Below are positions 28,834 through 28,887 of a stretch of DNA of 64,000 bases, piece by piece; positions within the stretch are counted from its first letter, which is position 1, and every line of letters starts with the position of its first letter. The notes under the pieces are model-generated. The model had not been told where the DNA came from and ran no database searches. It saw only the letters and a program-made list of their open reading frames with translations. The stretch comes from a virus. Its lineage: Duplodnaviria > Caudoviricetes. The translations under genes were made by a program, and so were the position numbers. The stretch is from positions 18,847-82,846 of the IMG/VR virus record IMGVR_UViG_3300009945_000011. The stretch is one strand, 5' to 3'.

Positions 28834-28887
28834 TGGGCCGTAGCGTGGGCATCGAACCCACGTGGGAGCCTGGTTACTCCCTACGGC
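28834..28887 (-). ncRNA. 54-nt tRNA-like structure (acceptor stem, one hairpin, T-arm, CCA); not a canonical tRNA
   Basis: GCCGUAG/CUACGGC 7-bp stem; GGAG-UAACCAGG-CUCC; CGUGGG-UUCGAUG-CCCACG; CCA follows. Confidence 0.6.

Follow-up and report, generated by a model that had tools for sequence, protein, structure and literature searches.

A 54-nt anticodon-less tRNA-like RNA between early genes of a tailed phage is a candidate intercistronic processing signal

We identify a 54-nt tRNA-like RNA encoded at positions 28887..28834, on the minus strand, of a 64,000-nt stretch of tailed-phage DNA (the whole of which is referred to here as the window). The element is real, lies beyond what chance produces and is not a decoder. 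Judged from sequence, it belongs to a kind of RNA that recurs in phages, and the most telling result is a placement common to this element and its look-alikes, namely just past stop codons. We give about an even chance to the reading that it is a tRNA-like signal for processing between cistrons, corresponding in phages to mitochondrial tRNA punctuation and to plant t-elements. Beyond the presence of the fold at this site, we infer every step of that reading.

A preliminary description, made from the sequence alone, had proposed a minus-strand build with a 7-bp acceptor-like stem, a 6-bp T-stem carrying a UUCGA loop, a single other arm and an encoded CCA, in an intergenic site starting 5 nt past the stop of the gene at 28893-29153. 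This build was borne out letter by letter, as was the site (Table 1), and the structural interpretation given with it also stands: instead of a canonical tRNA, the RNA is a tRNA top half to which one arm is added. More specifically, all 17 pairs (7 in the acceptor-like stem, 4 in the hairpin and 6 in the T-stem) are Watson-Crick, and the acceptor stem on the T-stem forms a 13-bp coaxial helix. The T-arm has G53, U54, U55, C56, R57, A58 and C61, that is, all the invariant T-loop bases. Because the middle hairpin is of D-arm size and its loop terminates in GG, as do most of the look-alike hairpin loops, a D-loop/T-loop elbow is conceivable. Base -1 of the element (28888) is U. Bacterial RNase P prefers a U as leader base, and a U at -1 together with a 3' CCA are favourable features for this enzyme.

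Table 1. Coordinates of the element, its parts and the neighbouring features in the window.
Feature	Position	Strand	Details
Upstream orphan gene, 86 aa	28893..29153	(-)	GTG start 29153, AGGAGG ribosome-binding site, stop 28895-28893
Long-range helix, 5' strand (end and stop of upstream gene)	28888..28904	(-)	predicted partner 28766-28785
Acceptor-like stem, 5' strand, 7 nt	28881..28887	(-)	first G pairs with the C immediately before CCA
Middle hairpin	28865..28880	(-)	4-bp stem, 8-nt loop UAACCAGG; alternative 6 bp with 6-nt loop
Linker CA, 2 nt, from hairpin to T-arm	28863..28864	(-)	from sequence
T-arm	28844..28862	(-)	6-bp stem, 7-nt loop UUCGAUG
Acceptor-like stem, 3' strand, 7 nt	28837..28843	(-)	from sequence and fold
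Encoded CCA	28834..28836	(-)	abuts the last pair, without an unpaired discriminator base
Hairpin right after CCA-A	28813..28833	(-)	7-8 bp, loop GGUGG
Hairpin showing AAAGGAG in its loop	28777..28805	(-)	followed by the two-codon mini-ORF ATG GCA TAA
Zinc-ribbon ORF, 42 codons	28648..28776	(-)	TTG start immediately past the mini-ORF stop, in frame

Folded in isolation, the element reaches -29.7 kcal/mol (z = -4.79), and none of 200 shuffles folds as well. A chance scan was run over 1500 shuffles of the 82.8-kb genome with our own permissive descriptor (a T-loop hairpin and a 7-bp closing stem, G-U pairs allowed). It returned, per shuffled genome, 0.098 compact hits, 0.0033 hits with CCA and 0.0007 hits with both CCA and an inner hairpin. 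The middle hairpin and the T-arm form in every folding context (hairpin pair probability about 1). The G at the junction (28881) pairs either with the acceptor strand or within the hairpin, giving helices of 7/4/6 or 6/6/6 pairs that are about 0.8 kcal/mol apart.

The window is taken from an 82.8-kb IMG/VR record (68% complete) whose genes for a family A DNA polymerase, an AEP primase, terminase, portal and tail tube mark it as a tailed phage. Every gene from about 31.3 kb down to 0.8 kb is on the minus strand, and the tRNA polarity of the element is that of all flanking genes. Since no promoter-like site was found near the element and the next terminator-like sites on its strand lie only further on (27888-27870 and 27783-27759), the element is placed inside a polycistronic early transcript, in sense orientation. 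The product of the upstream gene has no relative among 5.8 billion protein clusters and no family match, the Atlas gave nothing, and its single-sequence fold model (pLDDT 66, no significant PDB match) is uninformative. Downstream, the hairpin that directly follows the element is not an intrinsic terminator because no U-tract comes after it. Positions 28774-28800 (-) hold a strong ribosome-binding site, the ATG GCA TAA and a TTG in a single frame; this mini-ORF/TTG arrangement represents either termination-reinitiation or the remnant of a dead cassette. The zinc-ribbon ORF corresponds, as a truncated paralogue, to the C-terminal end of the following gene (28593-28318; BLASTP 46% identity over 41 aa, E 5e-13).

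The region as a whole consists of shuffled cassettes bordered by hairpins with UGUGU-type loops. Such hairpins are seen on the minus strand at 28606-28632, 28278-28305, 29353-29372 and 27759-27783, either before AAGGAGG or as a terminator. The hairpin at 28606-28632 has its CGUGGG/CCCACG stem in common with the T-arm of the element, and its outer stem is nearly identical to the acceptor. We take this hairpin family to resemble the promoter/stem-loop cassettes of T4-type phages that shuffle genes.

A long-range helix is predicted between the end of the upstream gene and a downstream partner that covers the mini-ORF, the TTG start and a G-rich stretch beyond it. This helix would enclose the element and the two hairpins, and one version of it takes the first five acceptor bases (28904-28883). 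In predicted folds of transcripts reaching 28765, it outcompetes the acceptor stem by about 2.3 kcal/mol (-68.3 vs -66.0), and the acceptor-stem pair probability is 0.03-0.37 in some long-transcript folds. Folding during transcription would be expected to favour the local fold over the long-range helix. The predicted helix may act as a translational coupling device or as an RNase III site. This bears on a different explanation of the element, in which it is a structural three-way junction that is never cut by tRNA enzymes and serves as a 3'-exonuclease barrier or a translation-coupling fold, its tRNA likeness being a relic. The element is indeed very stable, the early region is rich in other hairpins and junctions at gene boundaries, and the predicted helix joins the stop region of the upstream gene to the start region of the next ORF. 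We nevertheless consider this explanation unlikely, as it leaves unaccounted for the kept T-loop invariants, the CCA and the U at -1, as well as the same tRNA-like build on different stems in unrelated phages (see below).

Next, the element was compared with known RNA classes. As the preliminary description had anticipated, ARAGORN calls no tRNA gene in the window or in the whole record. Rfam gives no match for the element at gathering thresholds, the best match in the tRNA clan being tRNA-Sec with 17 bits (E = 2). The 7-bp acceptor stem and the complete set of T-arm invariants are those of a canonical tRNA; the cloverleaf is absent, the sole internal hairpin having 4 bp and an 8-nt loop where a tRNA has a D-arm and an anticodon arm of 5 bp with a 7-nt loop. 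Since neither ARAGORN nor Rfam calls a tRNA, the element is not a decoder. A 96-nt 'tRNA-Stop(UUA)' that ARAGORN reports at low threshold was rejected along with the Rfam tRNA-Sec match: acceptor and anticodon stems are mismatched in these calls, whose real parts are the T-arm and the hairpin. With these suppressor- and Sec-like calls rejected, suppression of the in-frame TAA of the downstream mini-ORF is therefore rejected as well.

Other classes were assessed in the same way. At the sequence level the acceptor end is that of tRNA-His, with a G-1 that pairs with C73 and CCA next to it; the remainder of tRNA-His is missing, since there is no anticodon arm and the hairpin loop lacks GUG. The third acceptor pair is C:G and not the G3:U70 of tmRNA, no analogue of the tmRNA D-loop is present, and the Rfam tmRNA model (RF00023) does not match the element at E <= 10. 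An intrinsic terminator was also dismissed: no terminator-like site was found at 28834-28887, and the tail reads CCAAUC without a U-tract. The position, by comparison, is that of t-elements and of tRNA punctuation, with a tRNA-like fold that abuts the end of a cistron and is co-oriented with all its neighbours.

We searched for orthologues of the locus at several levels. Megablast and blastn against 50,697 phage records returned nothing relevant, and blastn against E. coli genomes returned nothing. Exact patterns of the 3' half had no occurrence in IMG/VR or in GTDB genomes, and a pattern with the acceptor fixed had none in IMG/VR; the four matches of the latter in JGI metagenomes are all unstructured and were discarded as chance. 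Anchoring on the upstream and downstream ORFs yielded no relatives. Anchoring on the subtilase and terminase genes led to a single syntenic relative, IMGVR_UViG_3300042904_000308 (G001), whose terminase is 59% identical and which has the gene order in common over most of the genome. G001 is without the element, and the window from 25.5 to 36.6 kb has no detectable protein counterpart there. For the 262-aa gene at 24699-25487, four distant relatives were examined, and none showed an element, a tRNA or an Rfam match. With no orthologue in the collections searched, true covariation is not available for this locus.

The same searches bear on the idea of a site that acts at the DNA level, such as an attP core acquired from a tRNA gene of the host. 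Phage attachment sites often contain the 3' part of a tRNA, and genes for a tyrosine integrase and a large serine recombinase are both present in the record. Against this, neither gene is close: 8.6 kb separate the element from the tyrosine integrase gene, and about 40 kb of the record from that of the serine recombinase. Moreover, none of 185,579 species, each represented by one genome, contains an exact copy of the 22-nt 3' end, and an attP would need neither the 5' acceptor strand nor the extra hairpin stem. We regard such a site as very improbable. The tyrosine recombinase has 297 aa and lies at window 37472-38365 (-) (Phage_integrase, 107 bits); the serine recombinase, of 572 aa, lies outside the window at record positions 5249-6967 (G000:C1) (-). 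The phage may be temperate, or one of the recombinases may be used for dimer resolution.

G001 carries a different tRNA-like RNA. On its minus strand, a 121-nt sequence (L124:18030-18150, corresponding to G001:C1:78030-78150) is a tmRNA reduced to its tRNA-like domain. It scores 72.5 bits against RF00023 (gathering score 47), and its mRNA-like domain and pseudoknots are gone, so that 292 model positions are replaced by 40 nt. Its acceptor has G3:U70 and A73, followed by CCG. ARAGORN does not call it. The RNA sits in the same leftward arm, flanked by two small genes.

Elements of the same build were found in other phages. In total, ten such elements occur in five other, unrelated IMG/VR phage contigs (L136, L138, L141, L144 and L226). 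A pattern that combined the hairpin loop with the T-loop gave 10 IMG/VR loci, 4 of which (L136, L138, L141 and L144) are three-way junctions of the same build without an ARAGORN call; L226 supplied one further element beyond the pattern loci. These look-alikes have a closing stem of 5-7 bp, a hairpin of 2-5 bp, a linker of 1-4 nt and a T-arm of 5-6 bp, and the 8-nt loop UAACCAGG stands on different stems in L136, L138, L141 and L144. Conservation of this loop is partly selected for, because it was this loop that led to three of the other contigs. Copies that do not depend on the pattern, in L144 and as a second copy in L141, came from the descriptor or from a covariance model (R2), and the four L144 copies outside the pattern have the loops GCACCAGG, GCAGUUGG (D-loop-like) or GAAA. 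In the R2 search, 35 of 36 matches were the anticodon-arm-plus-T-arm part of ordinary tRNAs; to count as a member, a hit must therefore have a closed acceptor and must not be called as a tRNA. A looser loop/T-loop pattern likewise returned mostly ordinary tRNAs (ACCAGG being the 3' strand of the anticodon stem) and only one new mini element.

Most of these copies lie a few nucleotides past a stop codon. L144 (IMGVR_UViG_3300044711_000113) has five elements within 1.7 kb (6988-8719, minus strand), one per small gene and each after its gene. Four of the five start 4-7 nt past a stop codon, and within the 30 nt downstream of every one there is a ribosome-binding site with an ATG. The distance from stop to element is 8 nt for the L141 copy and 9 nt for the L226 copy. 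In L138 (IMGVR_UViG_3300031616_000005), the 1.1 kb or so that precedes a tRNA-Trp gene contains three elements, one of them with the UAACCAGG loop. Next to tRNA-Trp in this contig, at L138:9233-9300 (+), lies an odd tRNA called by ARAGORN whose 'anticodon' has two bases. Acceptor stems of the other copies have 5-7 bp, and CCA is encoded in the window copy and in none of the others, whose tails read GCA or N-CGCA. Among the L144 tails, four are N-CGCA and the fifth (L144 c) is G-CGGA; N-CGCA is also seen in another phage, L136.

We aligned 11 rows to the common fold. In this alignment, which was fitted to the model and includes one row inside an odd tRNA called by ARAGORN, 93% of cells pair, compared with 66% after shuffling and 34-52% when partners are slid. 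Both sides change in 14 of the 17 pairs. The rows may be analogues rather than homologues.

These comparisons also bear on whether the element is a functionless, decaying remnant of a tRNA gene, produced by internal deletion or by gain of a 3' half through recombination. Its 3' 43 nt read as tRNA from position 36 on. In many tRNA-Asn, tRNA-Lys and tRNA-Met genes, the 8 letters of the loop are found as U36-A37-A38 followed by the CCAGG strand of the anticodon stem, and some bacterial tRNA-Lys and tRNA-Met genes have exactly this T-arm. In addition, the element is a singleton in a hypervariable region, with a truncated gene copy adjacent. Yet no simple deletion of a cloverleaf fits, given that U8-A9 is missing, the loop has 8 nt and not 7, and the stem has 4 bp. 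Decay is also at odds with 17 perfect pairs, with exact pairing of the 5' 11 nt to two separate downstream segments, and with the same reduced build in other phages, where new stems surround the same loop. A remnant without function thus appears improbable. Because loop letters and T-arm match tRNA genes, the element may descend from the 3' half of a tRNA that a newly acquired 5' strand closed again. A parent could not be assigned from the T-arm: its exact 18-mer occurs in tRNA-Lys(UUU), in tRNA-Met and in others, and is thus not diagnostic.

We return to the processing signal. The preliminary description had offered an mRNA-processing signal as one possible function, and this part of it gains indirect support from the ten look-alikes, mostly just past stops, and from the tRNA-like RNA between genes of G001. 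The proposed mechanism is as follows. Embedded in the polycistronic early transcript, the anticodon-less mini tRNA would keep the features by which host tRNA end-processing enzymes know their substrates. RNase P would cut between 28888 and 28887, leaving an upstream mRNA that ends 5 nt past its stop codon, and host 3'-end enzymes would trim the other side to the CCA. Against this mechanism, the hairpin directly 3' of the CCA could block exonucleolytic 3' trimming, the acceptor stem loses to the long-range helix in some predicted long-transcript folds, and the other copies have closing stems of only 5-7 bp and lack an encoded CCA. As a result, the flanking messages would be separated and their stabilities made independent, and an RNA of about 54 nt would be freed as a by-product.

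Several known systems share parts of this scheme. The stable RNA species 1 and 2 of T4 (rnaC and rnaD) are phage-encoded, non-decoding and matured with tRNAs; they exceed the present element in length and belong to a tRNA cluster. In bacterial operon mRNAs, cleavage by RNase P sets relative cistron stability, at sites that, in contrast to the element, are not compact tRNA mimics. The tRNA-like domain of tmRNA also combines an acceptor with a T-arm in the absence of an anticodon, and the G001 version is also found between small phage genes; the element differs from tmRNA in lacking G3:U70, a tmRNA D-loop analogue and an Rfam tmRNA match. mascRNA/MEN-beta (RF01684) is likewise a small tRNA-like RNA that RNase P and RNase Z release from a longer transcript and that receives CCA afterwards; release by such enzymes is proposed here for the phage element as well. 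However, mascRNA is eukaryotic and nuclear and has a reduced cloverleaf, and its model does not match the element at E <= 10. Plant mitochondrial t-elements come closest as a precedent. They undergo cleavage by RNase P and RNase Z, are recognised by the CCA-adding enzyme, and receive a CCA tail and base modifications but no amino acid (PMC1920247, PMC11658184). Like the phage element, t-elements and tRNA punctuation place non-decoding tRNA-like folds at mRNA ends in polycistronic transcripts (PMC1920247, PMC11658184). T-elements, however, are recognisable homologues of full tRNAs without an encoded CCA, whereas the phage element is reduced to 54 nt, encodes its CCA and has only predicted processing.

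Alternatively, and compatibly with a role in processing, the excised 54-mer could itself be the product: a trans-acting small RNA that serves as a sponge or decoy for host factors or for toxins of the acceptor/CCA end, or as a histidine-accepting minihelix. A decoy for tRNA-targeting defences was the other function that the preliminary description had put forward. We hold a product acting in trans to be rather unlikely. Its narrower form, in which the G-1:C73-CCA end of a free 54-nt mini-tRNA leads to tRNA-His-like maturation and perhaps to histidine charging, or in which the RNA soaks up acceptor/CCA-end toxins, is more doubtful still. The window copy, the only one with an encoded CCA, does present a 13-bp helix whose terminal G:C directly abuts the CCA, as G-1:C73 does in bacterial tRNA-His. 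Both 13-bp minihelices and 8-bp microhelices are charged by HisRS when they carry G-1:C73, a pair that is sufficient to confer histidine identity on a minihelix (PMC9976931). The element resembles minihelix-His in its 13-bp coaxial acceptor/T helix, its T-loop and its terminal G:C followed by CCA (PMC9976931), but minihelix-His is synthetic, while the element is natural, lies inside an mRNA and has an extra junction hairpin, and charging is not expected from the other copies. We keep the histidine-like reading minor because the G-1:C73-CCA end is not common to the other elements (tails GCA or N-CGCA) and because t-elements, the best-studied analogues, are CCA-tailed without being aminoacylated (PMC11658184). 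Further points weigh against a role in trans: no phage HisRS, CCA-adding enzyme or TGT was found in the record (68% complete), an RNA without an anticodon loop does not mimic the target of anticodon nucleases, and a sponge would be expected in more than one copy per genome.

Elements of this kind are missed entirely by annotation pipelines, as the lack of any ARAGORN or Rfam call illustrates, and the literature searched holds no description of them, or of such operon punctuation, in phages. Punctuation of operons by tRNAs is textbook knowledge for mitochondria. If the intercistronic element described here is cut by host RNase P and 3'-end enzymes, tailed phages would be punctuating their operons with miniature, anticodon-less tRNAs. 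This reading, if true, would account for a group of intergenic structures in phage early regions that lack annotation and would provide compact natural substrates of RNase P, and the role of the excised mini-tRNAs would then become a question in its own right.
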